A DNA stretch of 64,000 nucleotides, taken from positions 49,910 through 113,909 of the forward strand of contig CAYYYL010000002.1 of the NCBI GenBank assembly GCA_964475835.1, given 5' to 3'. Source of the DNA: an uncultured Verrucomicrobiota bacterium (GTDB taxonomy: Bacteria; Verrucomicrobiota; Verrucomicrobiia; JABWAM01). Made by a program: the position numbers and the translations under genes. Each line of letters starts with the position of its first letter. The first letter of the stretch is position 1. The notes below the pieces were generated by a model. It ran no database searches and was not told the origin of the DNA. It saw nothing but the letters and a program-made list of their open reading frames with translations. Below, piece by piece: positions 16,557 to 56,140 of the stretch.

Positions 16557-16566
16557 GGGTTGATGT

Positions 16567-17316
16567 ATGAGAAATATCTGGATCTTGTTTAAGAAGGAGT
16601 TGATGGGGTTTTTCCTGTCGCCAATTGCCTACATTGTGGGGGTTTGTTTTCTTGCGATTACGGGTTTCAGTTTTTACACCGTGGTGGTCCTGCTCAGCGA
16701 ATCGAGCAGCGAGTATCAGCCGGTTCAGATTTTTCTCAGCGGCTTCTTTTCGTGGATCTGTCTTCTGGTGGTGACCCCGGTGATCACCATGCGGCTTTTT
16801 GCCGCGGAAAAGCAGTCCGGAACCATTGAATCCATGATGACCACCCCCGTGCGTGATCTTGAGTATGTTCTGGCGAAGTTTTTTGGTGCTTATTTTTTCT
16901 TTGTTCTGCTCTGGCTTGCGACAGCCCATTGTGTGTATGTCCTGCGTCATTTTGCAAAGGATGCCACACCCCTGGATCTTGGCCCTGTCATTGGCGGGTA
17001 CATGGGCATATTACTTGTAGGAGCCTTGTTTGTTTCGATTGGTTGCATGGCTTCAGCGATGACCAAAAACCAGATTATCGCTGCGGTGGTGACATTTGCT
17101 CTGACCGGAGGATTATTTTTTGGAGGGCTTTTTTTCTATCTGAACGCTGCGGACAAGCATCGCGATTTTTTTGAGTCATTTTCAATGCTCGCCCATGTTC
17201 AGGAGATGGCGACCGGATTGGTAGACTGGCGAAGAATTGTGTTTTACGTGACCGGCACCTGTTTTTTTCTTTTCCTGACCCACCGGATTGTGCAGGCGCG
17301 GCATTGGAAATCGTAA
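16567..17316 (+). CDS. ABC-2 type transporter permease (GldF-like)
   Basis: 249 aa with six predicted transmembrane helices, immediately downstream of the ATPase. Confidence 0.8.
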   Translation: MRNIWILFKKELMGFFLSPIAYIVGVCFLAITGFSFYTVVVLLSESSSEYQPVQIFLSGFFSWICLLVVTPVITMRLFAAEKQSGTIESMMTTPVRDLEYVLAKFFGAYFFFVLLWLATAHCVYVLRHFAKDATPLDLGPVIGGYMGILLVGALFVSIGCMASAMTKNQIIAAVVTFALTGGLFFGGLFFYLNAADKHRDFFESFSMLAHVQEMATGLVDWRRIVFYVTGTCFFLFLTHRIVQARHWKS

Positions 17317-35718: not shown

Positions 35719-36564
35719 ATGGTCCGCTCCTCGATTTTCTATGAAATGCACATGCATACGCCTCTTTGCAGGCACGCCACCGGGGAGCCTGAGGAGTATG
35801 CAGAGGTGGCCTTTTCGCGAAATCTAAAGGGGATGGTGGTGACGTGCCACAATCCTTTGCCTGGGGGTTGGGGGGCTGCCAGTCGAATGAGGCTCGAGGA
35901 ATTTTCCATCTATCAGGAAATGGTGTTGCGCACCCGCAAAACATGGGAAGGACGGGTTGATGTCCGACTGGGCCTGGAATGTGATTACGCGCCGGAGCTC
36001 GAACCCTGGCTCCGAAAACAACTTGATGGTGTAAGCTTCCACCATGTGCTTGGGTCAGTCCATCCCCAGATTCCTGATTACATGGACGCGTACTTTCGGG
36101 GCGACTGGTTTGCGTATCAGAAGACCTATTTTGATCACCTCGCAAGATCTGCGGAGTGCGGGTTGTTTGATACGCTTGCGCATCCCGATTTGATCAAAAA
36201 TTTATCACCTGAGGAATGGCGCTTGGATCGCATTGCTCCATTCATTCTGGAGGCGCTGGATCGCATCGCCCCGACGGGGGTGGGAATGGAATTGAACACG
36301 TCGGGGCTGAACAAGGCGATTCGAGAGATGAATCCCTGTCCCTGGATGCTTCGTGAAATGCGGGCCCGTTCCATACCGGTTACGATTGGAGCGGATGCTC
36401 ATCATCCGGGGAGGGTGGGGAGCCATTTTGAGGAGGCTCTTTCCATGCTGGAACAGGCAGGTTACGAGAGAGTGGGAATCGTTCTGGATCGCCAGCGAAT
36501 CGAGTTTCCCCTGGAAAAGGTCCGGCGTAGCCTTCAACCGATCAGTGCGTCAACTGTTTCGTGA
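35719..36564 (+). CDS. PHP-domain phosphoesterase of the HisJ/HisK histidinol-phosphatase family
   Basis: The N-terminal [19 protein letters not shown] matches the HisK H-x-H-T..C.HA.G..EEY motif. It lies 8 bp downstream of the kinase. Confidence 0.65.
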
Positions 36565-37900
36565 GTTGGTTGATCGCCTGCTTCAGGCCGCTGTCAGTTT
36601 TGAGACGTTCGTCCACCAGCCTGCATGCGTGGATGACGGTGCCATGGTCCCGTCCGCCGAACACCTCGCCAATTTCGTTCAGTGAGGAACGCGTCATGAT
36701 GCGGCAGAGATACATCGCCACCTGGCGGGGGAACGCGATGTTTGCACTCCGACGCTTGCTAGTCATATCCGCGAGACGAATGTCAAAATATGCTGCAACG
36801 CGTTTCTGAATGGTTTCCGCAGTCAATGCCTGCTTGCTCTCCTCAATCAAAATATCCTGAAGCTCGTCCTCCACTTCAGCGACTGTCAGCGGGCGGGCTT
36901 TGAGTTTCGTGGAAAACCAGACCTTGGCCCAGGCACCCTCGAGACGACGCACATTCGTTTTGATGTGATGAGCGAGAAATTGAAGGATTTCGTCAGGAAT
37001 GGGGACCTGGCTGTGTTCCTGTTTCCTCCGAAGAATGGCGAGGCGGGTTTCCTCATCAGGAAGTTGAAGTTGAACCGTAAGACCCCACTCAAAGCGTGAC
37101 ACAAGGCGTTGTTCGAGGTTTGAAATTTCAGTTGCAGGCCGATCACTTGAAAGCACGATCTGTTTCTGGGCTTCGAAAAGAGTGTTGAAGGTGTGGAAGA
37201 ACTCCTCCTGCATCTGATCCCCACGACCTAAAAAGTGAATATCATCCACCAATAGAATATCGCAATTCCGGTATTTTTTCCGAAATGGAACAAACCGTTT
37301 GTTCTGAATTGCATCCACAAATTCATTTACGAAACGTTCCGTGGAAACATAAGCGATCTGACACGATTTATTCTGGCTTACCAGATGGTGTCCGATGGCA
37401 TGCATGAGGTGGGTTTTCCCCAGTCCCGTGGCTCCGTAGATGAAGAGGGGATTGTAAGCCCGGCCAGGAGACTGGGCCACAGCGGAACATCCGGCATGGG
37501 CATACTGATTGCTCGGACCCACGACAAAGTTGTTGAAGGTGAAGGCTGGGTTGAGAATGTTGCGCTCAACGGACGGCTTCATGCGGGCCGGAGCCGGGGT
37601 GGGCGTCCAACTTTCCGCAGGTGGTGTTTTGGCGCTAACAACCTCGGTATCCTCATTGCGGATGAAGCGAAAGGTCATTGCTTTTCCGGAAATGGCGCTC
37701 AGCGTGTCCCTTAGAAGATCGCCGTAATTGTCCTCCAACCAGTAGCGATAGAGATTGGAAGACGCCTGGAGGCAAATGCAGTCGTTTTCGATGTGAGAAG
37801 CTCGGATGGGGTCAAACCAGCGTTTAAAAACTTGCGGGGCAACAACTTCGTTGAGCCGTGTGGCGGTGCGTTTCCAAAGATCCTGCGGGGAAGATTCCAT
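36542..37900 (-). CDS. dnaA: Chromosomal replication initiator protein DnaA
   Basis: 452 aa. Walker [11 protein letters not shown], Walker [10 protein letters not shown], sensor motifs, and the domain IV DNA-binding helix-turn-helix ([10 protein letters not shown]). Confidence 0.95.
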
Positions 37901-38668
37901 GGTCGATTCGCTAGTTATTCACAACAGGATGAGATTTCCCGAGTTGGTTGATGGGGGTGAAACAAAAAGGGCAGAAGGGTGGTACAGGGATGGAGATGAT
38001 GTCGATTGAGGCAAAAAAGGGATGGTGTTGCTGGCAAAAAGGTCGATATTTCCCTTAACAAAATGAGACCATTCCGGAAATTAGGCTTCCGAAGGGAAGC
38101 ATTTCCCAAAGAATAAGCTGAAAAGGGGAAGGATGGGAGTGAGTACCAACGGAAGATGCAGACTTTGACATCCGGCTGGGTTGGGGAGTTTTCAACAAGT
38201 TATTCACAGGGTTGGTTTGAACTCACTTTTTCCGCTTCGCGGCCATTTTAGTTCCAACTTTAGTTCCAACTTTTTTCAGCACAAGATTTTTTTGATCTCG
38301 AAGAAAATTTATTTCGTAAACTTGCAGTATGATTTCTTGCGGGCTCAACGGGAATAGAGAAGGCGTAAAAAAAAACCAAGCAAAATTGATTCAATTTGGA
38401 GATTTTCTATGTTGACGAAAAAAAATTAAATTGTGGGAAAGGATGGGCTGTTTTTTTCTAGGGGATGAAGAAGTTTAAAAGATTTTATATTTATGATTTA
38501 ACCGGTTCCGTGTGGGAGTCTTGATTTTGGGTTCCCTTCGGCCGGAATTAAAGATGAACGGAAGGGCAAAACGAAAGTGGCAAGGCAGTCAAGAAATGAA
38601 CATTGTCTTGGCGGTTGGGGAGGGGGTATATTGAAACTGGATTTCATTTTTTGAAGTGGTGTTATTTT
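37901..38668. other. Candidate chromosomal replication origin (oriC) or dnaA regulatory region
   Basis: This is the longest non-coding stretch in the window (~770 bp) and lies immediately upstream of dnaA. It is AT-rich, especially at 38290-38500. Two identical 11-mers AGTTATTCACA at 37913-37923 and 38198-38208 each contain TTATTCACA, which matches the E. coli DnaA box (TTATCCACA) at 8 of 9 positions. There is also a 12-bp tandem repeat and several A and T tracts. Confidence 0.45.
38248..38271. repeat. Perfect 2 x 12-bp tandem repeat (TTAGTTCCAACT) inside the candidate origin
   Basis: Read directly from the sequence. Confidence 0.9.
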
Positions 38669-42449: not shown

Positions 42450-43580
42450 ATGAAAAAAATCCCTACGAAACTGGATCGTGAATCCAATCGTTTTTTGCAT
42501 TCGCAGTTGAAGTCGATTTTATTGACGCAAATTCGCGAGCAAAACTGGAAGCCGGGGGATCGACTTCCCTCTGAAGAACAGCTCAGCAAGAAATACAGAA
42601 TTAACCGGGCAACCATTCGACGGGCGTTGAAGGATTTGATTCAGGATGGGCTGATCTATCGGGTGCCGGCGACGGGGACCTTCGTTTCCGATCCCAAAAC
42701 GATGGATCCAGAGTTCGTTCGAGTGGGGAAGGGGGCTTCCAATGTTGCTTGGCTGATGAAAACTCAAAAAGGACTGGTGCTTGGGCCCTTTCATACGGAG
42801 ATGTTCGATACGGCAAATCTTGAGCTTCGAAAGCTCCGTTACCGTTTGGTGTTTTTTTCCGTGGATGACCCTGCAAACCAGGGCAAGGTCCTTCAACAGA
42901 TTAATCAGAAGGAATTTGCAGCCGTCGTCCTCGTGGGCGGGCTTCCCGAGAATTTTATTGAAGCTGTAGCCAAACTTGAGATCCCATCCATCTTGCTCGA
43001 CAATCATTTGCGGCAAACTCGCATGGACAGCGTTCTTCCAGACAATCAAGCCGGGGCTTACGATGCGGTTCGACTGCTTCTGGATCATGGGCACCGTCAA
43101 ATAGCCTGTATTCGAGCCCCTTTAAATGAGGCAGCCTCGCGGGAGCGTTTTCAGGGATACGTTCATGCCTTGATGGAGGCCGGGCTTTCGTACAATCCCG
43201 ATCTTGTCGCCGAGGGGAATTTTCAGGTGGATGGCGGAGAGCGGGCCATGGCGCAGATTCTTGATTGTAAAAAAGCCGATCGGCCAACAGCCGTCTTTTG
43301 TTTGAACGATGAGATGGCCATTGGGGCGATGAAGTGTATACGTCAGCGGAAGATGGAAATCCCCAGGGATATTTCGGTCATAGGATTCGATAATGTGGAC
43401 TGGGCCGCTCATTCCATCCCCCCTCTGACAACGATCGAGGTCCCCAAAAGTCAGTTGGTAAGGATGGCTATCAAGCTGCTCGTGCAACGAATGAAGGCCT
43501 CCTTGGATGTGCCATGCAAACTCCTTCTCCCCACTTCGATTGTCACCCGCCAGTCCGTTGCACCCTGTCTTACAAAATAA
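42450..43580 (+). CDS. Hybrid transcriptional regulator with a GntR-type winged-HTH N-terminus fused to a LacI/periplasmic-binding-protein-like sugar-sensor domain
   Basis: GntR HTH (LPSEEQLSKKYRINRATIRRALKDLIQDGLI), followed by LacI-type sensor blocks (VVLVGG, CLNDEMAIGAMK, DISVIGFDN). Confidence 0.8.
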   Translation: MKKIPTKLDRESNRFLHSQLKSILLTQIREQNWKPGDRLPSEEQLSKKYRINRATIRRALKDLIQDGLIYRVPATGTFVSDPKTMDPEFVRVGKGASNVAWLMKTQKGLVLGPFHTEMFDTANLELRKLRYRLVFFSVDDPANQGKVLQQINQKEFAAVVLVGGLPENFIEAVAKLEIPSILLDNHLRQTRMDSVLPDNQAGAYDAVRLLLDHGHRQIACIRAPLNEAASRERFQGYVHALMEAGLSYNPDLVAEGNFQVDGGERAMAQILDCKKADRPTAVFCLNDEMAIGAMKCIRQRKMEIPRDISVIGFDNVDWAAHSIPPLTTIEVPKSQLVRMAIKLLVQRMKASLDVPCKLLLPTSIVTRQSVAPCLTK

Positions 43581-43588
43581 TGATTTTC

Positions 43589-45472
43589 ATGAAAACATCC
43601 CTGCGATTGACCGTTGTGACGATTGGTGCCTTGCTGACAGCCATCCAGGCTTTTGCCTGGGAGGATTCGACCGGGGAAAAGTCGCGTTTGACCCTTGCGG
43701 TACCCGGAAGTGCCGAAATGGTGGATTATGAAAAATTTGGTGAATTTCGAAATGTAGGTACGGAAAAGTTTTGTTACGTGATCAAAGATCGAAAGGGTTT
43801 GGCGGAGCAGGTGGGAGAAGGGGTGGATCCATGTCAGGCCCTGACAAAGGACCCCGTTTACCTTGAATTGAAAAAAAAGAAGGCTTTTCCGGGTCCTCAT
43901 TGGGACTATACGGATCACGCGAATCTTCCGCTGCGTTTCTATGCCTGGGCCGGAGCAACCGAGGATGGAGGCGTTCGACAATATTACACCGCGAAGGCTC
44001 TTGAAGATAATGGTCTGTTGATCCAGGCTCTCAGAGGATATTATGCGGTGGTTCTGCTCTATCCAAGGGCGGTGGGCTGGTCTTTTTGGAAATCGCCCCT
44101 TTATATGTCCCGAATGGCGTTGGATCGCATCGAATTTCTTCTACGGAAGCATCCCGAACTTCACCTGGCTCTCAAGGACGCTTATGTGAAAGTGGAGAAT
44201 GGTTTCGATGATGATGTTGCCAATGATCGTATCCTGGTGAATCCCGGACATTGGGTGAAGGAGTCTCCAACTCCCGTTGTGCCGGATCTGAAATCTTTGA
44301 AAATAGTGAAGAAAATCGGGGGGCCCAACGTCGAATTGGTACAATACGAAAATATGCACTGGCAGCTCTTAAAGGATGGCAAGCCTTTCATGATGCGGGG
44401 CATGGACTATGTGCCGACGCCTGTGGGCATGGGCAATCATACCGAGGGTTATGATGTGAATGGGTCGTGGCAGCTTGCTGATTCGAATCATAATGGGAAA
44501 ATTGATGCCATCGAGGAGTCCTGGATCGATACCAATGGGAATGAGGTTCAGGATCCTGATGAACCATGGACGACAGACATGCAGATCCTTCAGGACATGG
44601 GGGTGAACACGATTCGAATCTACAACCATGTGTTCAATAAAGATCTATTAAAACGGTGGCATGAGAAAAACGGGACCATGTTCCTGATTGGCGATTTCGC
44701 TGGAGCCTATGCAGCCGGCTCGGGTGCCACATGGGAGGCGGGAACGGATTACAGCAACCCGGAACAGGTGGAACGACTCATGGCGCTGATCAAGAAGATG
44801 GTTCTGGATGTGAAGGATGAGCCCTATGTGCTGATGTGGGTTTTGGGAAATGAGAATGTCTATGGAGTGGCGAATAGCGCAAAAAGGGATCCCGTCACCT
44901 ATTGGAAATTCATCAATCGAGCAGCGGAAATGATTCACGAGCTGGATCCCCATCATCCCGTGGCTGTCAGCAGTGGGGATCTCTATCTTTTTGACTCCTT
45001 TGTCGCAAATGCTCCCGCCGTGGATGTCTATGGCTGCAATATCTATCGGGGGAATGGCGGCATGGGGAAAAGTTTTTGGAGAAGCATTTTTGAGTTTAGT
45101 GGAAAACCGGTTTTTATCTCCGAATTCGGCTGTTCCGCCTACGCCAACGGCAGGACAAAGGAGGAGGTGGAGAATTTTCAAAAGGACTACCATCAGGGGA
45201 ACTGGGAGGATATTGAGTTCAATAAGGGCGGAGGTCTTGGGTATGGGAATGCGTTGGGAGGCATGGCTTTCGAATTTTGTGATGAATGGTGGAAAGCGGA
45301 ACACCTTCCCATGGAGGCTCATGATGTTCGGTCCGAACATCCAGCTCCTTTTTGTGACGGAAATAATTACGAGGAATGGTATGGACTCTTTTCCGTGGGA
45401 ACTGGGAAAAATAGTCCCTTCATGCGGCAGCCTCGGGCAGCTGTCGATTACTACAAAAACACCTGGAAATGA
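43589..45472 (+). CDS. Secreted glycoside hydrolase, clan GH-A TIM-barrel-like
   Basis: Signal peptide MKTSLRLTVVTIGALLTAIQAFA. Candidate acid/base WVLGNENVYG and candidate nucleophile FISEFGCSAY. The start codon overlaps the regulator's stop. Confidence 0.6.
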   Translation: MKTSLRLTVVTIGALLTAIQAFAWEDSTGEKSRLTLAVPGSAEMVDYEKFGEFRNVGTEKFCYVIKDRKGLAEQVGEGVDPCQALTKDPVYLELKKKKAFPGPHWDYTDHANLPLRFYAWAGATEDGGVRQYYTAKALEDNGLLIQALRGYYAVVLLYPRAVGWSFWKSPLYMSRMALDRIEFLLRKHPELHLALKDAYVKVENGFDDDVANDRILVNPGHWVKESPTPVVPDLKSLKIVKKIGGPNVELVQYENMHWQLLKDGKPFMMRGMDYVPTPVGMGNHTEGYDVNGSWQLADSNHNGKIDAIEESWIDTNGNEVQDPDEPWTTDMQILQDMGVNTIRIYNHVFNKDLLKRWHEKNGTMFLIGDFAGAYAAGSGATWEAGTDYSNPEQVERLMALIKKMVLDVKDEPYVLMWVLGNENVYGVANSAKRDPVTYWKFINRAAEMIHELDPHHPVAVSSGDLYLFDSFVANAPAVDVYGCNIYRGNGGMGKSFWRSIFEFSGKPVFISEFGCSAYANGRTKEEVENFQKDYHQGNWEDIEFNKGGGLGYGNALGGMAFEFCDEWWKAEHLPMEAHDVRSEHPAPFCDGNNYEEWYGLFSVGTGKNSPFMRQPRAAVDYYKNTWK

Positions 45473-45589: not shown

Positions 45590-46192
45590 ATGAAGAAACA
45601 ACTCAAACAGATCGCGCTCGTTCTGGTAACGAGCTTCGCAGCCACGCATCTTTTCGCACAGGAAGCGCCACTTCCTGTACAGAAACTTCCTTTTTCCGTT
45701 TATTCGGACATGGGTGATCATTTTATTCCCTCCGGATGGATGGGGGATTATGGTGACCTCAAGCTTGCGGATAGCGAAAAGACAAATCCGGCTCAAGGAA
45801 CCAAATGCATTAAAATCACCTATACGGGCAAAGCCACCGGCGGCCAGAAGTGGGCTGGAATTTACTGGCAGGATCCCGCAAATAACTGGGGAACCACGAA
45901 AAATGCCGGATATAACCTCACTGGCGCCAAATTGGTAAAGTTTTTTGCCCGTGGGGAAAAGGGCGGGGAAGTTGTTGAATTTAAATCGGGTGGAATCTCT
46001 TCCGGGGACTATCCTGATAGTTACAAGGCCGATGCGCCCGCGACAACGCTGACGCAGGAGTGGAAGGAATATGAAATCGATCTCGCGGGTCAGGATCTCT
46101 CCCACGTGATCGGTGGATTTGTGTTTGCTCTGAATAAGGACAAAAATCCTGATGGAGCCGTCTTTTTCCTCGATAACATTCGTTTCGAGTAA
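45590..46192 (+). CDS. Secreted ~200-aa beta-sandwich (carbohydrate-binding-module-like) protein, paralogue A
   Basis: Signal peptide MKKQLKQIALVLVTSFAATHLFA. About 40% identical to the next gene, sharing the blocks LPFSVYSD...SGWMGD, IYWQDPANNWGT and VIGGF...FLDNIRF. Confidence 0.55.
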   Translation: MKKQLKQIALVLVTSFAATHLFAQEAPLPVQKLPFSVYSDMGDHFIPSGWMGDYGDLKLADSEKTNPAQGTKCIKITYTGKATGGQKWAGIYWQDPANNWGTTKNAGYNLTGAKLVKFFARGEKGGEVVEFKSGGISSGDYPDSYKADAPATTLTQEWKEYEIDLAGQDLSHVIGGFVFALNKDKNPDGAVFFLDNIRFE

Positions 46193-46208: not shown

Positions 46209-46242
46209 CGCACCGCCGGCTTCGCTGGCGGTGCGTTTTTTT
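46209..46242 (+). terminator. Rho-independent terminator
   Basis: Perfect 9-bp stem cgcaccgcc / ggcggtgcg with the 9-nt loop ggcttcgct, followed by seven Ts. Confidence 0.8.
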
Positions 46243-46245
46243 GTT

Positions 46246-46848
46246 ATGGGGAGCATTCGTAGGACGGTCTGTTGTCTCTATACGGGCCTGATGTTGATGC
46301 AGGTTGATGCTGTCGACGTTCGTCGGTATCCCCAGAAAATGCCGTTTTCTGTTTTCAGTGATCAGGTGGACAATTTTTCCCCTTCGGGATGGATGGGGGA
46401 TGTTGAGGATCTGCATTTAAATCTCCGTTATACGAGTGATCCTGGTGAGGGAAAGGTGTGCCTGCAGATCATCTACAGGCCAAAAAATGGGGTGGGAGCC
46501 GGGTGGGTGGGGGTTTATTGGCAGGCTCCAGCCAACAATTGGGGAACCTCAAGGGAGGGCGGGTACGATCTGACTTGGGCCAGGAAAATCCGATTTAAGG
46601 CCAAAGGGTCGCGGGGTGAGGAGCTGATCCGATTTAATGCGGGTGGAATTACGGGGCCCTATCCTGATACTTTTAAAACCAGCATGCAGACCGTTACGTT
46701 GACGACAGCTTGGAAGGACTATGAAATTTCGCTGACGAGTCAAAATCTTGGCCGGGTTATTGGAGGTTTCTGTTTCACCATCCCCAAAGACGGAAATCCC
46801 GAGGGGTGCGTTTTTTATCTGGATGATATCCGATATTCCACGTTTTGA
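46246..46848 (+). CDS. Beta-sandwich (CBM-like) protein, paralogue B
   Basis: Shares the paralogous blocks MPFSVFSD...SGWMGD, VYWQAPANNWGT and VIGGFCF...YLDDIRY. The ORF-track GTG at 46231 lies inside the terminator, so the ATG at 46246 is preferred. The N-terminus is a weak, non-canonical signal peptide. Confidence 0.5.
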   Translation: MGSIRRTVCCLYTGLMLMQVDAVDVRRYPQKMPFSVFSDQVDNFSPSGWMGDVEDLHLNLRYTSDPGEGKVCLQIIYRPKNGVGAGWVGVYWQAPANNWGTSREGGYDLTWARKIRFKAKGSRGEELIRFNAGGITGPYPDTFKTSMQTVTLTTAWKDYEISLTSQNLGRVIGGFCFTIPKDGNPEGCVFYLDDIRYSTF

Positions 46849-46911: not shown

Positions 46912-47592
46912 ATGACTTTTTTTCATCAGCTTCAGCTCCTTTTTGAGCGAACCTATTCTGGCATTGGGGTGGATCTGGAAGCGTGTCTTATTGGAAGGCA
47001 TCGTTGTCTTGAACTTTCACGGATGGCCCCGGATCGGGCAGCCGAGCTTAGCATGGATGGACGAACTTTTCTTCGGATCGTCGATGGGAGGCTCCATGTG
47101 GCCATTTGGTATGATCCATCCATTATCCGGATGCTTGAAGATCATCATCCGTTTCGTGAGTTGAGTAGTGCGAACATTCGAGCGCTCATCGTGTTTATCG
47201 AGGAGTTGAACCATGCGGTTCACGCGGGTTTGCTTTTTCTAGAAAGCCGGTTTGACCAGAAGGACGGGGAGCTTGCGGCAAACTTGGAACTGCAGTCCAG
47301 GATTGATACCTACTTTACACTGGAGGTGATTTGTCGAGCCCTTCATCGAGAGCGGGCTTTAAGTTGGAAGGAGCGAGACTGGATTGAAACATCTCTGTTC
47401 GATCAGGAATCTTTTGAGTACACAGACCCGCGTTTAAAAGCGCGGTACGCCAACTCAAACTATCTTGCCCGAAAATGCGTGCGACATTTGAGTCGACTTT
47501 CCAAGACGGACAGAATTCAGGCTATGCGTGAGTTTCGGGTTAAAACCTTTCGGGAAAAGAGGGAGTGGATCGAAGCCTGTTCGAAGTTTTGA
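46912..47592 (+). CDS. Hypothetical cytoplasmic protein of unknown function
   Basis: 226-aa ORF with no signal peptide or transmembrane segment and no motif I can assign. Confidence 0.4.
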   Translation: MTFFHQLQLLFERTYSGIGVDLEACLIGRHRCLELSRMAPDRAAELSMDGRTFLRIVDGRLHVAIWYDPSIIRMLEDHHPFRELSSANIRALIVFIEELNHAVHAGLLFLESRFDQKDGELAANLELQSRIDTYFTLEVICRALHRERALSWKERDWIETSLFDQESFEYTDPRLKARYANSNYLARKCVRHLSRLSKTDRIQAMREFRVKTFREKREWIEACSKF

Positions 47593-47676
47593 CTCACAGC
47601 CAAAAAGCGGTTGCCTTCGAATTATATTACTTAGAATAAGTATTGTGCGACATTAGTTTTCCCTGAAAGCAAGCGC

Positions 47677-50600
47677 CTATGCCGGCTTGGAGATCTTTTT
47701 TATGCGCCACTGTTGAATCGACAAGAAAATGACTGGGGTTACGAGAAGGATATGAATGAGGCTAGAGATCATGCCCCCGATTACGGGTGCGGCAATGGGA
47801 CGCATGATTTCAATGCCGGTTCGTTCGTTGGAGAAGATGGGAAGCATGAGTGGGACAAGGCTTGCGAGGACCGTGGAAACAGTCATCACCTTGGGGCGCA
47901 TGCGCAGAGCCGCCCCTTCCAAAATTGCTTCCATGAGTTGGGGACGTGTTAAATGACCTCCCTGGGCCTTGGAATGGCGTTTAACAGCCTCCTCAAGGTA
48001 GATGACCATGACCACCCCTGTTTGGACTGCGGTTCCAAACAGTGCGATGTAGCCCACCCACACCGCCACTGAAAAATCATAGTTCAACATCCATTGAAGG
48101 AAGACTCCCCCTGTCAGAGCGAAAGGAACGGCCAGAAGAACGTGGGCGGCTTCAAGGAAGGATCGATAGACCATGTACAGAAGCACAAAGATGATCATGA
48201 TGACGACCGGGCCCACGATAAAAAGGGTCCGATGAACCCGGAGGAGATTCTCGTACTCGCCTCCCCATGAAATGGTGTACCCGGGAGGAAGGGTGATCTG
48301 ATTGATTTTCTGTTTTGCCTCTTCAACAAAACCGCCAAGGTCCCTGCCTCGAACATTGCATTGCACAAAAACACGCAGTTGTCCGTTTTCACTCGAAATC
48401 ATGGATGGACCCGTGGAGGAGTGAATTTCCGCCACTTTTCCAAGGGGAATGGATGCCCCATTCATGGAGGAGACCAGAATGTTTGCAATGGCCTCCGGAC
48501 TGTCCCGTAATTCCCGGGCATAACGAAGTCGCACGGGAAACCTCTGTCGACCTTCAATGGTGGTAGTCAGGTTTCGACCTCCAATGGCGGTCTCAATGAC
48601 ATCCAATACCTCGTCCATTTTAACTCCATAACGGGCGAGATCGTTGCGCTTGAGCTCAATTTCCAGGTAGGGGCTCCCCACCCCGCGTTCTGCGTAAATG
48701 TCAGCGGCACCGGGAATTGTTCGCAGGAGGCCTTCGACCTCGATGGCTTTTGCCTCGAGTGTTTTGAGGTCATCGCCAAATAATTTAACGGCGATTTGGG
48801 TGCGCACACCGGTGTTCAGCATCAGCACCCGATTCTGAATCGGTTGCAAAAAAGCGGGAGTGAATCCCGGTATGTGACTGACGGCGTCGGTCATCTCCGC
48901 TATCAGGCTGTTCTTGGTCACGCCGGCACGCCAGAGATGCTCTGGTTTCAATGTGATGGTGGTTTCGATCATGGAGACGGGCGCTGGGTCGGTCGCTGTT
49001 TCCGCCCGCCCCAATTTTCCCACGACCTCCTCCACTTCAGGAAACTGATGAAGGATGCGGTCCTGTTCAGCCATCACCTTTTGAACCTCGGTAATGGAGG
49101 CGCTTGGAATGGTGGTGGGCATGAAAAGCAAGGCTCGTTCGTTAAGTGGGGGCATGAATTCCACCCCAAAACGGGTTGCCAGAAATGCCGCGCTTAAAAA
49201 AAGTGCGCCGGCGATTCCGAGAGTTGCGGCCCTGTGGTTCAATGCAAGGCGCAGAATGGGTAGATAAATGCGAAGCAGGATTCGCATGAGGGGATTTTCG
49301 TTTTCGTCATGAATCTTTCCCCTTACGAGAAGGGTGCAGAGCACCGGTACCAGGGTGACGGCGATGGCGGTGGAGGCGATCATCGCAAAAGTCTTGGTGA
49401 AGGCCAGGGGGTGAAACAGCTTTCCCTCCTGCCCTGTCAGGGCAAATACTGGAATGAATGCGAGGATGATGATGGCCATCGAATAGAAAATGGGACGGAC
49501 AACCAATTTCGTGGCATCAAGGGTGATTTCTACAATATGAGTTCGTAGAAAACTATTTTTCTCAGAATCGCTTGCATGAGGGATTTCCCTCCGGATGCGA
49601 ATGTGGGCTTCCCTCATCACACATTCCGTGACAACGATCCCTGCGTCGACCAGAACGCCGATGGCGATGGCAATTCCGGAGAGGCTCATGATGTTGGATG
49701 TAAGGCCAAATTGTTTCATCATCACAAACGCCATGAGGATGGAGAGCGGGAGCGGAATGGTCACAATGGCGATGGATCGGAAATGGAATAGGAAGATGAT
49801 GTGGGCAAGCGTCACCAGGATGATGGCCTCCAGAAGGGCAAAACGAAGGGTCTGAACCGCTCGGGCGATCAATTCACTCCGATCATAAAAGGGGCGAATC
49901 TCCACTCCCTCCGGAAGCCCCCGCTGAATTTCACTGATTTTGGCTTTCACGCGATCAATCAGCTCACTTGTGCTCACCCCGTAGCGGGCAACGACGATGC
50001 CGCCGACGATTTCCTCGCCATTGCGATCCAGGGCGCCGCGTCGGAATTCAGGGCCCAGTTGGACGCTTGCCACATCCCGTACCAGAACCGGTTGGCCATC
50101 CCGATAGTCCACAAGGACCCGTTCGATGTCTTCCGTGGAGTGAAACAAGCCAAGTCCGCGAACCAGAAATTCCATCCGGTTTTGCTCGATCACATTTCCC
50201 CCGACGTTGTTATTTGATCCCATGACGGCTTCCGCAACCTGTTTCAAGGTTACGTTGTACGAGCGCAATTTATTGGGATCGACGTCAATCTGGTATTGGC
50301 GGACAAACCCACCAACCGAAGCGACCTCCGCCACGCCGGGGACCGAATTGAGTTGGTAGCGTACAAACCAGTCTTGCAGGCCCCGCAACTCACCAAGGTC
50401 ATGCCCCTTCCCCATGGCTGATGCTCTGGAAGTGTCGAGGTAGTACTCATAGATCCAACCCAAGCCCGTGGCGTCGGGGCCAAGAGTGGGTGTGACCCCT
50501 CTCGGGAGGGACCCTCCAAGCGTGCCCAGTTTTTCGAGGACGCGTGCCCGTGCGAAATAGGTGTCCACGCTGTCTTCAAACACAAGGGTCACCATGGAAA

Positions 50601-50868
50601 AACCGAAGTTGGAATTCGCCCGTATGCTTTTTACTCCGGCCAGGCCCCGAAGATTGACGCTGAGGGGGTAAGTGACCTGGTCCTCGATCTCCTGGGCTGC
50701 CCGGCCTGGCCACTCGGCGAAAACAATGACCTGGTTTTCACTCAAATCCGGAATCGCATCAATGGGGGTATGATAAGCCGCCCAGATCCCCCACCCTGTA
50801 AGCAGAAGATAGGCGATCAGGACCAGGAAGCGATTTCGCAAAGACCACTCAATGAGTTTCTGGATCAT
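47677..50868 (-). CDS. cusA: CusA/CzcA-family heavy-metal efflux RND permease
   Basis: Twelve-TM RND architecture. The N-terminus [23 protein letters not shown] and the conserved [16 protein letters not shown] are typical of CusA/CzcA. The ATG at 50868 is preferred; it leaves a 4-bp gap after cusB. Confidence 0.9.
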
Positions 50869-50872
50869 GGAG

Positions 50873-52318
50873 TCAATGGGTGTGACCCTGGCTGGTTGTG
50901 GAGGGGGGGATCGTTGGTTGGGAGGCATCCTGGGAGGTTGCAGGGGCGCTTCGCAATTGCGCCTGGGCATCAATCAGGAACGCGCCCGCAGAAACGATGG
51001 TCTCTCCATCTTCCAATCCTTCAAGGATCTGGGTGTAGTGAGTGGTCACGGTCCCGATCCTTACATTTCGCTGAACAAAGAGACCGCTTTCCTTGCGAAT
51101 ATAGACAACGTGGCGGGTTCCTAGATCGAGGATGGCTGAATTCGGAACACTCAGAACCTGCTCCCCAAGGGGGATTTCCAGGTTGCCTGTCGCGCTTAAG
51201 TTAGGCAGGAGGCGATGATCCTTGTTCGGGACCGTGAAGCGGACAGGAACCGTCCGGCTGTTGGTGTCAATGGCGCGGCTGATGAAGGAAAGGGTTCCGG
51301 GAAAGGTTTCACCAGGAAATGATTTTGTAGTCAAACGGACTTTCTGACCTGTGCGGAGGAGGCCCAGATCGGGTTCAAAAACCTGGCCGTTGAACCAGAG
51401 TTCATCCAGGGGAACAATATGGTAAAGAACCTGGTCGATCTTTGCCAGTTCACCGATGTGCACCATGTTTCCGACGATGGACCCCGAAATGGGAGAGCGG
51501 ATGATGACTTCCGGTTTAGCTGTTTTCTCACTTTTTAATCGTTCGAGATCCTCCGGGGTAAAACCGATACGTTCGAGACGTTCCTGTCCAACGGCGATGA
51601 CCGAATCCAGAAGTTCCCGTTCGTAAAAGGTGCTCATCCAGCGATCCCTTACTGCCCGAAGGTATTCTTCCTGCAATTTGAGGGCTTCGGTGGAATAGAT
51701 GGAGACAAGCGGATCTCCGCGTTTGACTTCGGTTTGATTGAAATCGACAAACTGCTTTTCAATCCTCCCCTCCACAAGGGGGACAATATCCCGATGTTGA
51801 TTCAAATCGTAACCCAAGGTTCCAAAAATCAGCAGCTCCCGCGAAAGTCTGCGTTTTTGAACCTCTTCGGTTCTTACGGCTGCCTGACGAATGCCTTCCT
51901 CGGTGAGCCTTACTTCGGTCATAATCGACTCATGTCTCCCGACCGAGTCATAAACGGGAATAAGATCCATTCCGCAAATCGGGCACTTGCCCGGGTGGTC
52001 GGAATGGATTTGGGCATGCATGCTGCAGGTATAGTGGGTAAGTTTGCGTTCCTGCTTTTCAGGTTGAGGACTTGTCTGGCTGGGAGCGGATTGCATCCGG
52101 ACGGCGACCAGATCCATTCCGCAGATGGGACAGCGGCCGGGTTTTTCTGAGCGGATCTGGGGGTGCATGCTACAGGTGTAGTAGGTGACATCGTTTGTGC
52201 CCTTGGTGGAGTTTGTGGTTGCAGCAGGTGCGTTGGATTGAGAGCAGCCTTGAAGGAGTAGAATCGCGCCCAGCAATAAAAGGCCCACGGAGGATCGGAT
52301 CCAGGGTAAGTTTTTCAT
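50873..52318 (-). CDS. cusB: RND efflux periplasmic adaptor (CusB-like membrane fusion protein), lipoprotein, with two tandem N-terminal Cys-rich metal-binding-like repeats
   Basis: Lipobox LLLQGCS. Two repeats, [25 protein letters not shown] and [25 protein letters not shown], followed by the MFP beta-barrel/lipoyl domains. The ATG at 52318 is preferred over the long ORF-track extension. Confidence 0.8.
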
Positions 52319-52323
52319 AAGGC

Positions 52324-52980
52324 TTAAAATTGAGCTGCGATCTGCATTCCCAGAACGGGATGCCACTCCCAGTCGGTTTCGCCACGTTCGTCCAGGCGCA
52401 TCCAGTAGACCTGAGCCTCCCAATGGCGGACAATCGGCACTCCCACTCCCACAGCGAGTTGGTTTTCCATGAAGCGGCCCTCCTGGATGGAATAGAGCCA
52501 CTTTTCCGAAACAAAAGGATCGATCTGGATCGATCCGATTTTCCATGAAGTTCCAAAGGAGGTCTGATTGCTGTAAACCGCCTGCCAGGTTTCGGACTCA
52601 TCCTGCGGGACCGGAAATTCCATGCGGAAGCGGTTGGAAAGACTCCAGTCTTTGATGGGAATATCCATGGTGGCGGAAAAACTCGGTTTGTGGGTTGTTT
52701 CGTCTTCCTCACCAAATCGCTGGTCCTGTTCGTAGGCCATCGCGAAGGTCCAGCGTGGCGAGTAACGCCAGACCAACATGGGTTCGATCTCATCATAGAT
52801 GGGATCTGAAATGTCCTTTTCGACACGGCCCTGGGCCCGCAGGCTGAGGTCAAGGGAGGAAGCGACAACCTGGGTCCAGGAAGCTTCGGTCCATAGCTGC
52901 CAGTCCCCGTCCGCAGCGTGTAGTTTTGGAAGAAGCGCCAACAGGAGGCTGATAAAAAGCGTTGAGCTGAGGTGTTTCAT
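52324..52980 (-). CDS. Small secreted beta-barrel-like outer-membrane protein candidate (possibly DUF2490-like) in the position where an outer-membrane factor would be expected
   Basis: Signal peptide MKHLSSTLFISLLLALLPKLHAA. Alternating amphipathic beta-strand pattern. C-terminal ...AAQF with a terminal aromatic residue, as in OMP beta-barrel signatures. Confidence 0.45.
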   Translation of the reverse strand: MKHLSSTLFISLLLALLPKLHAADGDWQLWTEASWTQVVASSLDLSLRAQGRVEKDISDPIYDEIEPMLVWRYSPRWTFAMAYEQDQRFGEEDETTHKPSFSATMDIPIKDWSLSNRFRMEFPVPQDESETWQAVYSNQTSFGTSWKIGSIQIDPFVSEKWLYSIQEGRFMENQLAVGVGVPIVRHWEAQVYWMRLDERGETDWEWHPVLGMQIAAQF

Positions 52981-53453
52981 TGCAGAAATTCGAGGGGACA
53001 GGTGGCTGCCACGGCATCGCCGAATTTTTTCAGGAATTGGGCCCGCTGTTCCGGAGTGAGCAGTTGGGAGACAGCAAGAATGTGCTGCATGGTAAGTTCA
53101 TCCGTCGCATGCTGCGCCTCGGACATCTCCCTTTGCAGGGCGCTCATGGCGGCAGCATCCGTGGCTCCGGCCTGAAACATATGGGCGATTTTCATTCGAG
53201 CTGAGCAGTGGCGCTGGCAACATTCCTTCACATTTTGGTGGTAGTTGGTTTCAAGCGCTTCGATTTTGGATTTTTGTTCCTTCGAGAGCTGTAAATCCGC
53301 GAACAAGGCTTCGGATTTCATCGAGGTGGGCATGGATTGAGCCATCCGGTCGGTGAGGTCCCGGGCTTTCCAACCGAGGAGCGCCAGACAGGAGACGCCA
53401 ATAAGAAGGAGAAAAAGGGTTCCTCCCAGCCATTGCTTGGTTTTCGATTTCAT
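52977..53453 (-). CDS. Periplasmic LTxxQ-motif protein (Spy/CpxP/ZraP-like stress or metal-binding family)
   Basis: Signal/TM anchor MKSKTKQWLGGTLFLLLIGVSCLALLG. Motifs LSKEQKSKI and LTPEQRAQF. The body is helical and His/Met-containing. Confidence 0.55.
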   Translation of the reverse strand: MKSKTKQWLGGTLFLLLIGVSCLALLGWKARDLTDRMAQSMPTSMKSEALFADLQLSKEQKSKIEALETNYHQNVKECCQRHCSARMKIAHMFQAGATDAAAMSALQREMSEAQHATDELTMQHILAVSQLLTPEQRAQFLKKFGDAVAATCPLEFLQ

Positions 53454-53827
53454 GGGTGATTTTTGTCTTCGAGTTTGAGATAGGTTCCGGCAAGTGAAGC
53501 CTCCCCCAGCGGGCGAGCCAGCTCAGATTGCCAGGTTTGGGTGGCCACGAACTTCGAGTGCTTGTTCAGGCGGACCCATTGAAAACCGGTCATCAATAAA
53601 ACAAGGGAGGCTGCAAGGGGGAAAAGGAGTCTGGGCTCGGGAAACCACTCCGTCCATGAAGGGATGACCCGGGAACGCTTTCCATGGATCTCCCTCATGA
53701 TATTCCGGACTAGGATGCCTTCGTTGCGTGGCGGGCGTGGCTGCCAGGCTTTGAGGAGATCGGAAAGCGAATCGTTGGGTTTCATGGGCTCTATAGGTAT
53801 AACGAACGGACCCATCAAATCCCTCAA
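53450..53827 (-). CDS. Putative anti-sigma factor (single-TM membrane protein)
   Basis: 125 aa with one TM helix (LLFPLAASLVLLMTGF) and a position downstream of the ECF sigma. The assignment is by context only. Confidence 0.4.
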   Translation of the reverse strand: MRDLMGPFVIPIEPMKPNDSLSDLLKAWQPRPPRNEGILVRNIMREIHGKRSRVIPSWTEWFPEPRLLFPLAASLVLLMTGFQWVRLNKHSKFVATQTWQSELARPLGEASLAGTYLKLEDKNHP

Positions 53828-53881
53828 AAAAACAACCCGCTCCCCAAAGGAGAGCGGGTTATTAACGAAGTGACAGAAGAA

Positions 53882-54124
53882 TCAGCGGATTGAAACACAA
53901 GTAGCGCGGACAGATCCTCCCTTGCTGGAGTAAACCACAACCATTTTTGGTTCGCCGCATTTTCCACAGCACGAATGCCGGGAAGCACAGCTCTGTTCCT
54001 TAAGAGTTGCGGAGCATCCTTTTTGGTGTTTCTTAGACCCCATGGGACATTGGGAAGCATCTCCCGCAAAGGAGACTCCGGCGATGGTGAGAAGAAGGAC
54101 GATGGCGAGTGAGATGGATTTCAT
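53882..54124 (-). CDS. Small secreted cysteine-rich protein (80 aa; seven Cys in a ~60-aa mature region)
   Basis: Signal peptide MKSISLAIVLLLTIAGVSFA, then GDASQCPMGSKKHQKGCSATLKEQSCASRHSCCGKCGEPKM.... Located between the ECF sigma and the anti-sigma candidate. Confidence 0.45.
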   Translation of the reverse strand: MKSISLAIVLLLTIAGVSFAGDASQCPMGSKKHQKGCSATLKEQSCASRHSCCGKCGEPKMVVVYSSKGGSVRATCVSIR

Positions 54125-54172
54125 AGATGAGACAAGTTCATCATATGAATGAAAAAAACACAAGAGAGAGGT

Positions 54173-54763
54173 TTAATCCGGAAGGAACGGACGCAGCTTG
54201 CTCCGAAGAGCCTGTCGGGCACGGTAGATTTGCATTTCAATCTTTTTGGGCGATCCTCCCAGGATCGCAGCTATTTCGCGATGTCCAAAACCCTCGTATT
54301 CCGCAAGGACAAACGCGGTCCGCTGATCCGGAGGAAGTCCGGCAACGGCCTTTTCCACGGCATCGGATAATTCGTTTTGAGCGACCCCGGGATCGAGAGC
54401 ACCATGGACTTCACTTAGGGTGGCATAGATGTTGCCACTGGGATCGGGAAGTACCGGATTTCTTGCTCTTCGCCGAAGGGCATCCACAGCTTTGCGTACC
54501 CCAATTTGGAAAAGCCACGACTGGAATGTTCCACTCGGCTGGTATCGAGGAAGGGATCGGTATCCCTGGATAAATGTCTCCTGAGCGACGTCCCGGGCCT
54601 CATCCCAATCAAAAAGCATGCGGTAGAGGGTGGCCTGCAATCTTCCTCCAAATGTTTCAATGAGTAATTGGAAGAATGAGTCGTCTCCCCCCTTCACTCG
54701 CCTGATCCAATCCTGAATTTGCGCCTCGGATGGTGCGGCATGTTCACTGGGATCGGAATTCAT
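54173..54763 (-). CDS. ECF-family RNA polymerase sigma-70 factor
   Basis: Sigma region 2 (ARDVAQETFIQGYRSL) and region 4 (RTAFVLAEYEGFGHREIAAILGGSPKKIEMQIYRAR). Start taken at MNSDPSEH (54763). Confidence 0.85.
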   Translation of the reverse strand: MNSDPSEHAAPSEAQIQDWIRRVKGGDDSFFQLLIETFGGRLQATLYRMLFDWDEARDVAQETFIQGYRSLPRYQPSGTFQSWLFQIGVRKAVDALRRRARNPVLPDPSGNIYATLSEVHGALDPGVAQNELSDAVEKAVAGLPPDQRTAFVLAEYEGFGHREIAAILGGSPKKIEMQIYRARQALRSKLRPFLPD

Positions 54764-54856
54764 CCAAACGGCACCATTCCGAAAACCTGCATTGAAATCA
54801 ACGAGATCCGTTTCGAAGTTGGCATTTTGAAAATTCACGAGCATCCTCTTCGAAGG

Positions 54857-56140
54857 ATGAAGTTTATCTGGAGAATGGCTGCTGTCGTGGGGATTTTGAC
54901 CGCTGTTTTAGCGGGAATCCTGGCGGGGTGCCATCGAACTCCCCCCGTACTGCTTCATGTGGCGCTCTGGTTGCCGGACGAGGAGCTTGAGGCACTGACC
55001 AAACAAGTAGAGGAGTTTCAACGGGAGCATCCTTCCGTGCGGGTGGAGATCATGCGTTTGCGAAACGGCGAGGAGGCGCGGCAGAATCTGTCGTCCGGGG
55101 CTGCGACAGGGGTTCTTCCCGATATCTGTATGTTGTCGGCCCGGGATCTGGTCTGGTGGGCTAATTCCCAGACTCTTGCGGACTTGACGCCATTTCATCC
55201 TGATACCCATGCCTTCCATCCCGATCTCCTCACTGCATTTTCGCGAGGGGGGAAGCTTCTTGCGATCCCCTGTGGCTGGTCCACTTCCCTGCTCTACTAC
55301 AATCGGGAAATTTTTCAAAAACAAGGAGTGCCATTTCCCCGTGGGTTCTGGCATTGGACGGACCTTTTGACCGCAGCCCAGGCGCTGACATTGGTTAATG
55401 AGGATGGAAAGGTGTTTCAGCATGGGTTGGAGCTCGATCCTGAAATGGGATCCTGGGCGCCCTTTGTCTGGCAGAATCGTGGAGAAATGATTCGGTCAGA
55501 TGGGAGCTGGTGCCTTACGGATCCGCAATTTCTCCAATCCAATCTCCGAGCGATTGATTTTTACGCGGGCCTTGTGCGAGAGCATCGTGTGGCGGCGCTG
55601 GATCGTGATGCCAGTCACCATTTGTTCCTGGAACAGAAATGTGCGATGACCTTGGGACCGCGGAGTCTTGGTCGTGAATTGGCGCTTCAGTCCCGGTTTG
55701 AATGGGATGTGGCTCCCCTTCCACGCGGGGAATGTTTCGCGGATCTCCTGGATGCATGGGGTTATGCCCTCTCCAGTCAGTCCCCTCATCCTACCGAGGC
55801 GTTTGAGCTGATTCAGTTTCTCACCCGGGAAACGGCTCTGGCGACCATGATGCAGCGAGGCTATGTGGCTCCCCCTCTGACAAATCTTTTCGCCTCCCGT
55901 TTGTTTTTGGATTTCCCCGGCATTCACCCTGCGAACAATCAAGCGTGGATCGACAGCCTTCCCATCAGCCGGGTGCCCGCCTTTGCCAGCAACATGCAAA
56001 AGGTGGGTGAGATCATGTCGGGAGAAATGCTCGCCCTGATGTCTGCCACCAATGTGAGCGCCCGAAGCGCGTTGGAACATATGGAGGCACGACTAGAAGA
56101 GTTGACCTTGTTAAGCGCACCCTCTAAATCCAGCCCATGA
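54857..56140 (+). CDS. ABC transporter substrate-binding lipoprotein (family 1, sugar-type); orphan with no adjacent permease or ATPase
   Basis: Lipobox LAGCH, with an SBP_bac_1-like composition and length (~427 aa). Confidence 0.65.
   Translation: MKFIWRMAAVVGILTAVLAGILAGCHRTPPVLLHVALWLPDEELEALTKQVEEFQREHPSVRVEIMRLRNGEEARQNLSSGAATGVLPDICMLSARDLVWWANSQTLADLTPFHPDTHAFHPDLLTAFSRGGKLLAIPCGWSTSLLYYNREIFQKQGVPFPRGFWHWTDLLTAAQALTLVNEDGKVFQHGLELDPEMGSWAPFVWQNRGEMIRSDGSWCLTDPQFLQSNLRAIDFYAGLVREHRVAALDRDASHHLFLEQKCAMTLGPRSLGRELALQSRFEWDVAPLPRGECFADLLDAWGYALSSQSPHPTEAFELIQFLTRETALATMMQRGYVAPPLTNLFASRLFLDFPGIHPANNQAWIDSLPISRVPAFASNMQKVGEIMSGEMLALMSATNVSARSALEHMEARLEELTLLSAPSKSSP

Follow-up and report, generated by a model that had tools for sequence, protein, structure and literature searches.

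The 64-kb contig stretch analyzed here (the window), taken from contig CAYYYL010000002.1 of an uncultured Verrucomicrobiota bacterium, carries a cluster of seven metal-efflux genes on its minus strand at 47677-54763. We hold with moderate confidence that this cluster is a Verrucomicrobial chromosomal Cu/Ag resistance locus, in which a CnrYXH-like regulatory module drives a CusBA pump together with a DUF2490 outer-membrane barrel, and which is read as two transcription units. Genes were called from the listing of open reading frames (ORFs) and from Pfam and NCBIfam family searches, and these bore out the seven co-directional genes proposed by a first-pass annotation. The features, in the direction of transcription, are as follows (ECF, extracytoplasmic function; TM, transmembrane helix; RND, resistance-nodulation-division; L001 is a related locus).

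54772-54814, minus strand: conserved non-coding block 5' of the sigma gene, possible non-ECF promoter, kept in L001
54173-54763, minus strand: ECF sigma factor gene, 196 aa (Sigma70_r2 E 2e-14, Sigma70_r4_2 E 2e-15)
53882-54124, minus strand: gene of a secreted Cys-rich protein, 80 aa, signal peptide followed by a mature part containing 8 Cys
53824-53863, minus strand: intrinsic terminator, 15-bp stem and T7 run
53801-53825, minus strand: putative ECF-type promoter, GAGGGATT (-35 region), 13 nt, CGTT (-10 region)
53450-53785, minus strand: gene of a one-TM protein (tm125), candidate CnrY-like anti-sigma factor, 111 aa, without Pfam or NCBIfam family
52977-53453, minus strand: gene of an LTxxQ, CnrX-family, membrane-anchored periplasmic protein, 158 aa (PF13801 E 3e-14, PF07813 E 1e-10)
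52324-52980, minus strand: gene of a DUF2490 outer-membrane beta-barrel, 218 aa (PF10677)
50873-52318, minus strand: cusB, membrane fusion lipoprotein, 481 aa (HlyD_D23, two HMBD)
47677-50868, minus strand: cusA, heavy-metal RND permease, 1063 aa (TIGR00914)

The last five genes are closely packed. The one-TM and LTxxQ genes overlap by 4 nt, as do the LTxxQ and DUF2490 genes, and gaps of 5 nt (DUF2490-cusB) and 4 nt (cusB-cusA) follow. The tight spacing that had been described for all seven genes therefore holds for these five, while the terminator sets the sigma and Cys-rich genes apart. Between sigma and the candidate anti-sigma there is one small periplasmic protein, the Cys-rich one, and not two as had been annotated, since the LTxxQ gene comes after the candidate. 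Both flanking genes are on the plus strand; the convergent one has its end at 47592, and the divergent one, which encodes a solute-binding protein, starts near 54857. Therefore, nothing else is co-transcribed with the cluster.

Related loci were obtained from look-ups of encoding contigs, a genome scan and a metagenome scan, and the window proteins were placed on them by tblastn. This gave 16 distinct loci (designated here by L numbers). The scan of GTDB representative genomes yielded three loci and that of metagenomes seven. Relatives of the DUF2490 protein were few (six in a first search and 47 by profile) and all were 32-60% identical. The subfamily, with ~46 cluster representatives, was found only in metagenomes and metagenome-assembled genomes, and where the latter were named they were Verrucomicrobial. 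In 16 of 16 loci the DUF2490 gene was immediately followed by cusB, which places it in the slot of cusC, czcC or cnrC directly upstream of the adaptor gene, and cusA came next wherever the contig continued. The most distant relative, P0045 (32% identity), adjoins an anion symporter gene and not cusBA; the present subfamily is the sole part of the DUF2490 family seen here locked to cusBA. The one-TM and LTxxQ genes precede DUF2490 in ten loci, and in an eleventh (L023), at the edge of the contig, at least the LTxxQ gene is present. The sigma gene has orthologues no more than 3.5 kb from the cluster in L001, L005, L006, L009, L013 and L014; the gene is located upstream in the window and in five of these loci, and L005 has it downstream of cusA. 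The equivalent position in seven loci, namely the window and the same six, is occupied by a gene for a small secreted protein. The small genes are thus conserved with cusBA among the relatives, a point on which the first-pass annotation had made its proposal depend.

The terminator between the Cys-rich and one-TM genes is strong. The terminator scan reported a stem of 15 pairs, eight of them GC, followed by a TTTTTTT tail; the RNA fold was calculated at -31.2 kcal/mol (z -6.3), and none of 200 shuffles folded as well. An equivalent hairpin with a T-run stands at the same place in L001 and L009, just before the promoter motif. Directly after the terminator lies the putative promoter GAGGGATTTGATGGGTCCGTTCGTT (53825-53801), which was found by comparing the upstream regions of related loci and which, written as TGAGGGATT-N13-CGTT, heads the five-gene run. 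The pattern GAGGGWTT-N13-CGTT has a single match in the window, even when up to one mismatch is allowed. Exact copies in the same orientation were found 5' of cluster genes in L001, L005, L006, L008, L009, L012/L024, L013, L014, L022 and L025, and further copies with one mismatch head the operons of L005 and L014. In L008, L012 and L025, which are without the sensor genes, the motif lies directly upstream of DUF2490. The intergenic DNA around the motif could otherwise not be aligned among loci. As the motif was derived from these same loci, its recurrence is evidence of conservation and not an independent statistical test.

The promoter is similar to cnrCp (GAGGGGAA-N14-CGTATA; cGAGGGGAAgcatcgacctggtcCGTATAg) and cnrYp (aAGGGGGAGtccttcgcgcagcCGTATAa) of plasmid pMOL28, with TGAGGG...CGT(T/A) here corresponding to GAGGGG/AGGGGG...CGTATA there. 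The consensus of ECF291, the CnrH group, has been listed with ATACGC as -35 and CCCTCA as -10 (PMC13492112, Table 4). These are the reverse complement of GCGTAT/TGAGGG, and TGAGGGWTT-N13-CGTT resembles the ECF291 consensus if it is so read. We infer from this sequence likeness that TGAGGGWTT-N13-CGTT, which is kept at 12 distinct loci counting the window, may be a CnrH-type, sigma-dependent promoter. As a separate observation, the ECF291 entry of that table may be strand-flipped relative to the experimentally mapped cnr elements (TGAGGG ... GCGTAT).

A promoter of this kind had been sought upstream of 54763 and of cusB. There was none at either place, and the gap before cusB is just 5 nt. The sigma gene is instead preceded by the block 54772-54814, GAAACGGA(TC)TCGTTGATTTCAA...TTTYCGGRATGGTG, which is common to L001 and carries a 2-nt indel relative to it. 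The indel breaks the reading frame and so supports the sigma start at 54763. GAGGGWTT-N13-CGTT has no match in this block at up to one mismatch, and the block might act as a promoter that is not of the ECF type; a Sigma-70 promoter scan of 47000-55500 returned no sites. The terminator and the internal promoter make a single operon headed by the sigma gene, as first annotated, doubtful. Probably there are two transcription units, one with the sigma and Cys-rich genes and the other a five-gene operon driven by the ECF-type promoter.

Second copies of the motif stand at 2748-2772 in L014, before a gene for a 130-aa secreted Cys-rich protein, and at 1858-1882 in L005, before one for a DUF3347 protein, suggesting that the regulon includes several small periplasmic metal-binding proteins. 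In L008 (9643-9903) and L012 (9708-9941), a gene for a small PspC-domain membrane protein is located directly upstream of the motif and DUF2490.

The pump is of the Cus type. CusA matched TIGR00914 over its full length with 1088 bits (cut-off 701.45) and PF00873 with E 6e-240, and it is 43% identical to CusA of Escherichia coli. The Cu(I)/Ag(I) triad M573, M623 and M672 is kept, together with E567, D617, E625, R669, D405 and K984 (E. coli numbering), and the triad and charged residues are kept in the window protein and in five orthologues. E939 is replaced by Q, and the relay pairs M410/M501 and M271/M755 are not kept. Because CusA keeps the Met triad, the pumped metal is probably Cu(I)/Ag(I) and not Ni/Co. 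CusB matched PF16576 (HlyD_D23, E 3e-47), PF19335 (HMBD) twice (E 4.5e-31) and TIGR01730 (125.8 bits, cut-off 94.9); with NF007303, the model of the CusB subfamily, it reached 155 bits, short of the cut-off of 390, and identity to E. coli CusB was 28%. The protein has a lipobox (LLLQGC) and two N-terminal Cys-type HMBD domains, the second of which corresponds in the alignment to the Met-rich, Cu(I)-binding region at the N terminus of E. coli CusB. Its alpha-helical domain is short and ordinary, of about the same length as in E. coli CusB. No CusF was found, as phmmer with E. coli CusF gave no match at E <=10 among all window ORFs (counted from stop to stop) of 80 aa or longer, and the secreted Cys-rich protein is unrelated to CusF in sequence.

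The DUF2490 protein is a member of PF10677 (TC 1.B.81) by its score (53.9 bits, cut-off 29.8), its signal peptide, its C-terminal Phe and its barrel model. The AlphaFold2 model (pLDDT 94.2) is all-beta, with eleven long strands and one irregular segment; it has no helix except the signal peptide and no periplasmic alpha-helical tunnel. Foldseek returned generic matches at a TM-score of ~0.5 to monomeric 12-stranded barrels (KdgM/NanC/PcoB), and no other family matched at E <=0.1, with no OEP and no sequence relationship to PcoB. The cusBA-linked subfamily specifically keeps Q37, Y62, E64, R72, S74, P75, R76, E84, D86 and H186 when compared with the unlinked P0045 and P0046. DUF2490 has been described as a putative porin family without established function (PMC4827864), and PcoB, part of a resistance system, as a channel for copper in the outer membrane (PMC9210255, PMC12509749). 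The window protein appears more likely to be an accessory metal channel or binding protein, functionally PcoB-like, than a replacement of TolC, because the barrel has no periplasmic tunnel and CusB is not elongated.

The DUF2490 protein could also be no conduit at all, acting instead as an outer-membrane enzyme, a lipid or lipopolysaccharide remodeller or an envelope protector that is co-induced because copper damages the envelope. The lumen carries Arg, Glu, Asp and His residues that do not vary, a feature to be expected of an active site or a plug, and a 2026 preprint described a buried Arg/Glu/Tyr network in 238 modelled DUF2490 members with no function assigned. Other members are found in unrelated contexts, next to the anion symporter gene mentioned above or to a DUF4956 gene in Bacteroides. 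We nevertheless consider such a role rather unlikely, as the strict coupling to cusB in the outer-membrane factor slot points to transport, no catalytic motif was identified, and the channels KdgM, NanC and PcoB match as well or better.

The LTxxQ protein passed the threshold of PF13801 (Metal_resist), the family of CnrX with its four-helix hooked hairpin, and it is membrane-anchored. Its alignment with CnrX/NccX was weak (E ~0.2) and full-length, including the N-terminal anchor; its profile matched CnrX of pMOL28 with 84% probability (E 7e-6). H42 and H46 of CnrX, both metal ligands there, lack an equivalent; at the ligand positions E63 and H119 the residue is mostly retained, and at M123 the window protein has V where the family consensus has M. 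Among 19 family members C79, H82, C83 and C152 are invariant, forming the motif C79-x2-H82-C83 ... C152-P153. Judged from this motif, the sensor probably has a thiolate-based Cu/Ag site using Cys3His.

The one-TM protein has ~50 cytoplasmic residues, a TM helix at about residues 53-72 and ~40 periplasmic residues. Its family is tiny, with 23 representatives among 1.84 billion proteins, all but two of them 111-132 aa long, and it has 20 invariant positions. It is like CnrY in size (111 versus 94 aa), in topology and in the coupling of its gene to the sensor gene, and on this basis it could be an anti-sigma factor of the CnrY kind. Homology to CnrY was detected neither by a PDB sequence search nor by a profile search (no PDB match) nor by hhalign (probability 0.6%). 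The CnrYXH-like logic invoked by the first-pass annotation was upheld, and in a more literal sense than had been proposed, as the LTxxQ protein is of the CnrX family, anchored and coupled to a CnrY-sized one-TM protein, behind a CnrH-like promoter.

Alternatively, the LTxxQ protein might be a chaperone of the Spy/CpxP/ZraP type that counters metal-induced misfolding, in which case the one-TM protein would not be an anti-sigma factor and the sigma factor would be controlled otherwise. The PF07813 match and the weak matches to the Spy, CpxP and ZraP NCBIfam models agree with this, as do the absence of H42 and H46, the lack of an anti-sigma signature in the one-TM protein and the location of the sigma and one-TM genes in different transcription units. 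Spy and CpxP are soluble, however, and the LTxxQ protein keeps the N-terminal anchor of CnrX/NccX. Its gene is translationally coupled to that of a CnrY-sized protein with a ~50-residue cytoplasmic N-terminus, and invariance of a Cys3His motif is seen more typically in metal sites than on the surfaces of chaperones. We regard the chaperone role as unlikely and retain the CnrX-like sensor.

The sigma factor scored 78.8 bits with TIGR02937 (cut-off 42.9) and is 33% identical to CnrH over 143 aa. The Cys-rich protein begins with the signal peptide MKSISLAIVLLLTIAGVSFA and matched no Pfam or NCBIfam family. Its counterparts share a C-terminal (M)TVVYSSKGGS..T.VS.R in L001, L005, L006 and L009, and weakly in L014, while the middle regions of these secreted proteins vary among loci and are rich in Cys, His or Lys. 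The possibility that the Cys-rich protein is itself the anti-sigma factor was ruled out by its signal peptide.

No canonical outer-membrane factor (OMF) accompanies the pump, as had been annotated, and the small barrel stands in its place. Searches were performed by phmmer with E. coli CusC, TolC and pMOL28 CnrC and with a profile of the three sequences; the queries recovered each other as controls, and the window and nine related loci (L001, L005-L009, L012-L014) yielded no OMF. Likewise, the OEP domain was absent from 20 large window ORFs (Pfam) and from annotated neighbourhoods. RND operons without an OMF gene commonly borrow an unlinked TolC, as AcrAB and MexXY do.

The barrel was also considered as the exit duct of the pump, as the first-pass annotation had suggested, with a small monomeric barrel replacing trimeric TolC/CusC in a CusA-CusB-DUF2490 complex. 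Its position in the OMF slot at every locus, the lack of an OMF gene in the window and 15 related loci (including flanks of up to 10 kb and the L014 island with its P-type ATPase) and the polar residues Y62, E64, R72, S74, R76, E84, D86 and H186, which are kept just in the cusBA-linked subfamily and suggest a dedicated function, speak for such a duct, but we find it improbable and mechanistically doubtful, since the model is all-beta without a periplasmic tunnel, the CusB alpha-domain is about as long as that of E. coli CusB, a protein that depends on the long CusC tunnel for spanning the periplasm, borrowing of an unlinked TolC is common, and a buried charge network argues against a wide duct.

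In the mechanism that we favor, a CnrYXH-like module acting on CusBA and an accessory barrel, the sigma and Cys-rich genes would be read from a non-ECF promoter up to the strong terminator, and the unit of the one-TM protein, sensor, DUF2490 protein, CusB and CusA would start at the CnrH-like ECF promoter. When metal is absent, the one-TM protein would hold sigma at the membrane, like CnrY. Periplasmic Cu(I)/Ag(I) would bind the Cys/His site of the sensor (CxxHC...C), and the signal would pass from the sensor to the one-TM protein so that sigma is released. Sigma would then transcribe the second unit, raising the level of the pump and also of its own inhibitor pair as a negative feedback. CusBA would export Cu(I)/Ag(I) via the Met triad, with the Cys-type HMBD domains of CusB as the metal-acceptor region. 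The DUF2490 protein would serve the system in the outer membrane as a dedicated channel for metal or a binding component, with a function closer to that of PcoB/CopB than to that of CusC, and the periplasmic tunnel would be supplied by an unlinked TolC-family protein.

Several points weigh against this mechanism. The sigma factor is by sequence nearer to AlgU, RpoE and SigW, its best PDB relatives, than to CnrH (91 bits for the AlgU type versus 46.6 bits for CnrH). Its gene has no upstream ECF motif and lies apart from the presumed inhibitor, and ECF systems seldom show either feature. No similarity of the one-TM protein to CnrY or to any anti-sigma domain was detected, and the periplasmic cysteines of the sensor may form disulfides rather than bind metal. 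For the barrel, the buried charge network in modelled members argues against an open pore, and the similarity to PcoB is generic barrel similarity at TM ~0.5, without a PcoB-like His/Met-rich N-terminal region. The absence of an OMF gene covers the window and the related loci with up to 10 kb of flank.

The closest known system is CnrYXH-CnrCBA of Cupriavidus metallidurans pMOL28 (ECF291), where the same set of an ECF sigma, a small one-TM protein and an anchored CnrX-family sensor controls an RND pump, and where the sensor gene is likewise translationally coupled to the one-TM gene, as in cnrY/cnrX. The two systems differ in the metal, which is Ni/Co there and probably Cu(I)/Ag(I) here, and in the sensor, which has an invariant CxxHC...CP in place of H42/H46. 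The one-TM protein is not detectably homologous to CnrY. The sigma gene, unlike cnrH, belongs to a unit of its own, which lies upstream of the operon or, in the case of L005, downstream of cusA. Finally, a CnrC-type OMF is missing, with DUF2490 in its slot, and a secreted Cys-rich protein is added. CusCFBA of E. coli shares with the present pump the metal-site residues of CusA and the domain plan of CusB. It differs in having CusC and CusF, both missing here, whereas CusB here is a lipoprotein with two Cys-type HMBD domains; control here is apparently by the ECF sigma module, and no CusRS-type two-component genes adjoin the cluster. From PcoB/CopB the DUF2490 protein is distinguished by the absence of a sequence relationship, by the lack of a His/Met-rich disordered N-terminal domain and by its partner, which is an RND pump and not a multicopper oxidase; its likeness to them is no better than to the sugar-acid porins KdgM/NanC.

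Sigma factors of ECF281 and ECF290 are encoded with an anti-sigma at +1 and a PF13801 heavy-metal resistance protein at +2, and ECF291 (CnrH) with a full pump operon (PMC7826278). Common to those groups and the present cluster are an ECF sigma, a membrane anti-sigma (here a candidate) and a PF13801 periplasmic protein in a metal-stress neighbourhood. Here, however, the candidate anti-sigma has no zinc-finger or RskA-like domain, a secreted protein gene, a terminator and a promoter lie between it and sigma, and the full pump sits in the unit of the sensor. The cluster had been put forward as an undescribed kind of sensing module; as the pairing of sigma/anti-sigma with PF13801 is already described for all three groups, the regulatory logic is a variant and not an undescribed kind. 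A literature search found no paper describing this combined arrangement.

In L005 (361-1185), L013 (7401-8288) and L014 (3286-4155), a gene for a retropepsin-like aspartic protease (Asp_protease_2), absent from the window, stands immediately upstream of the metal operon and is read from the other strand. L013 (8897-9124) and L014 (4751-4993) encode a 75-80 aa Cys-rich protein without signal peptide just upstream of the one-TM gene. Its motifs CIxCGK...CCPLCF presumably resemble those of TRASH/YHS, and this insert may be an extra metal-binding regulator or chaperone. In L014 the cluster runs on past cusA (11140-14981) with genes for two small proteins, a MauE-family protein, an HMBD lipoprotein that stands alone and a P-type ATPase, making a larger copper island in which an OMF gene is still missing. 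The window has no gene for CusF, a P-type ATPase, DUF3347, a TRASH-like protein or MauE, and an Rfam search of the region gave no match.

The idea that the cluster is a mobile island was rejected, as the GC content is uniform, dnaA is ~10 kb away and the flanks are syntenic with L001. The dnaA gene is located at 36545-37918 on the minus strand (Bac_DnaA E 2e-67, with DnaA_N and DnaA_C domains) and adjoins the lowest-GC kilobase of the window (38000-38600, GC 0.415, GC skew 0.28). The origin of chromosomal replication may lie here, ~10 kb away from the metal cluster. Two tandem paralogous secreted proteins of ~200 aa without Pfam family are encoded at 45590-46192 and 46231-46848 (both plus strand), adjoining a GH2/GH72-like glycosidase gene (43514-45472); L001 has four to five copies there (16083-18658). 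They form a small expanding gene family with no function assigned.

These findings extend known logic, namely CnrYXH-type regulation, the Cus-type pump and the DUF2490 family, and do not overturn it. It seems a long shot that, in these Verrucomicrobia, the RND pump works at the outer membrane with a monomeric 12-stranded DUF2490 barrel as its partner in place of a TolC-family trimer, and that this pump is switched on by a sensor with a CnrX fold in which a Cys3His thiolate site for Cu(I)/Ag(I) has taken the place of the His/Glu nickel site; if true, the pairing would give trans-envelope metal efflux a new architecture. The missing linked OMF in any case poses the question of how heavy-metal-efflux RND pumps work in the Planctomycetes-Verrucomicrobia-Chlamydiae group. 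For DUF2490, a family with thousands of members, the lock to cusBA gives the first metal-linked context and a testable role in how the outer membrane deals with Cu/Ag. Periplasmic metal sensing via an ECF anti-sigma complex has its structural paradigm in CnrX, which has so far been tied to Ni/Co and to His/Glu/Met ligands; a Cys3His variant beside a Cu(I)/Ag(I) pump would show how the scaffold is retuned to soft metals. The conserved promoter motif provides a handle for defining the regulon in uncultured Verrucomicrobia.

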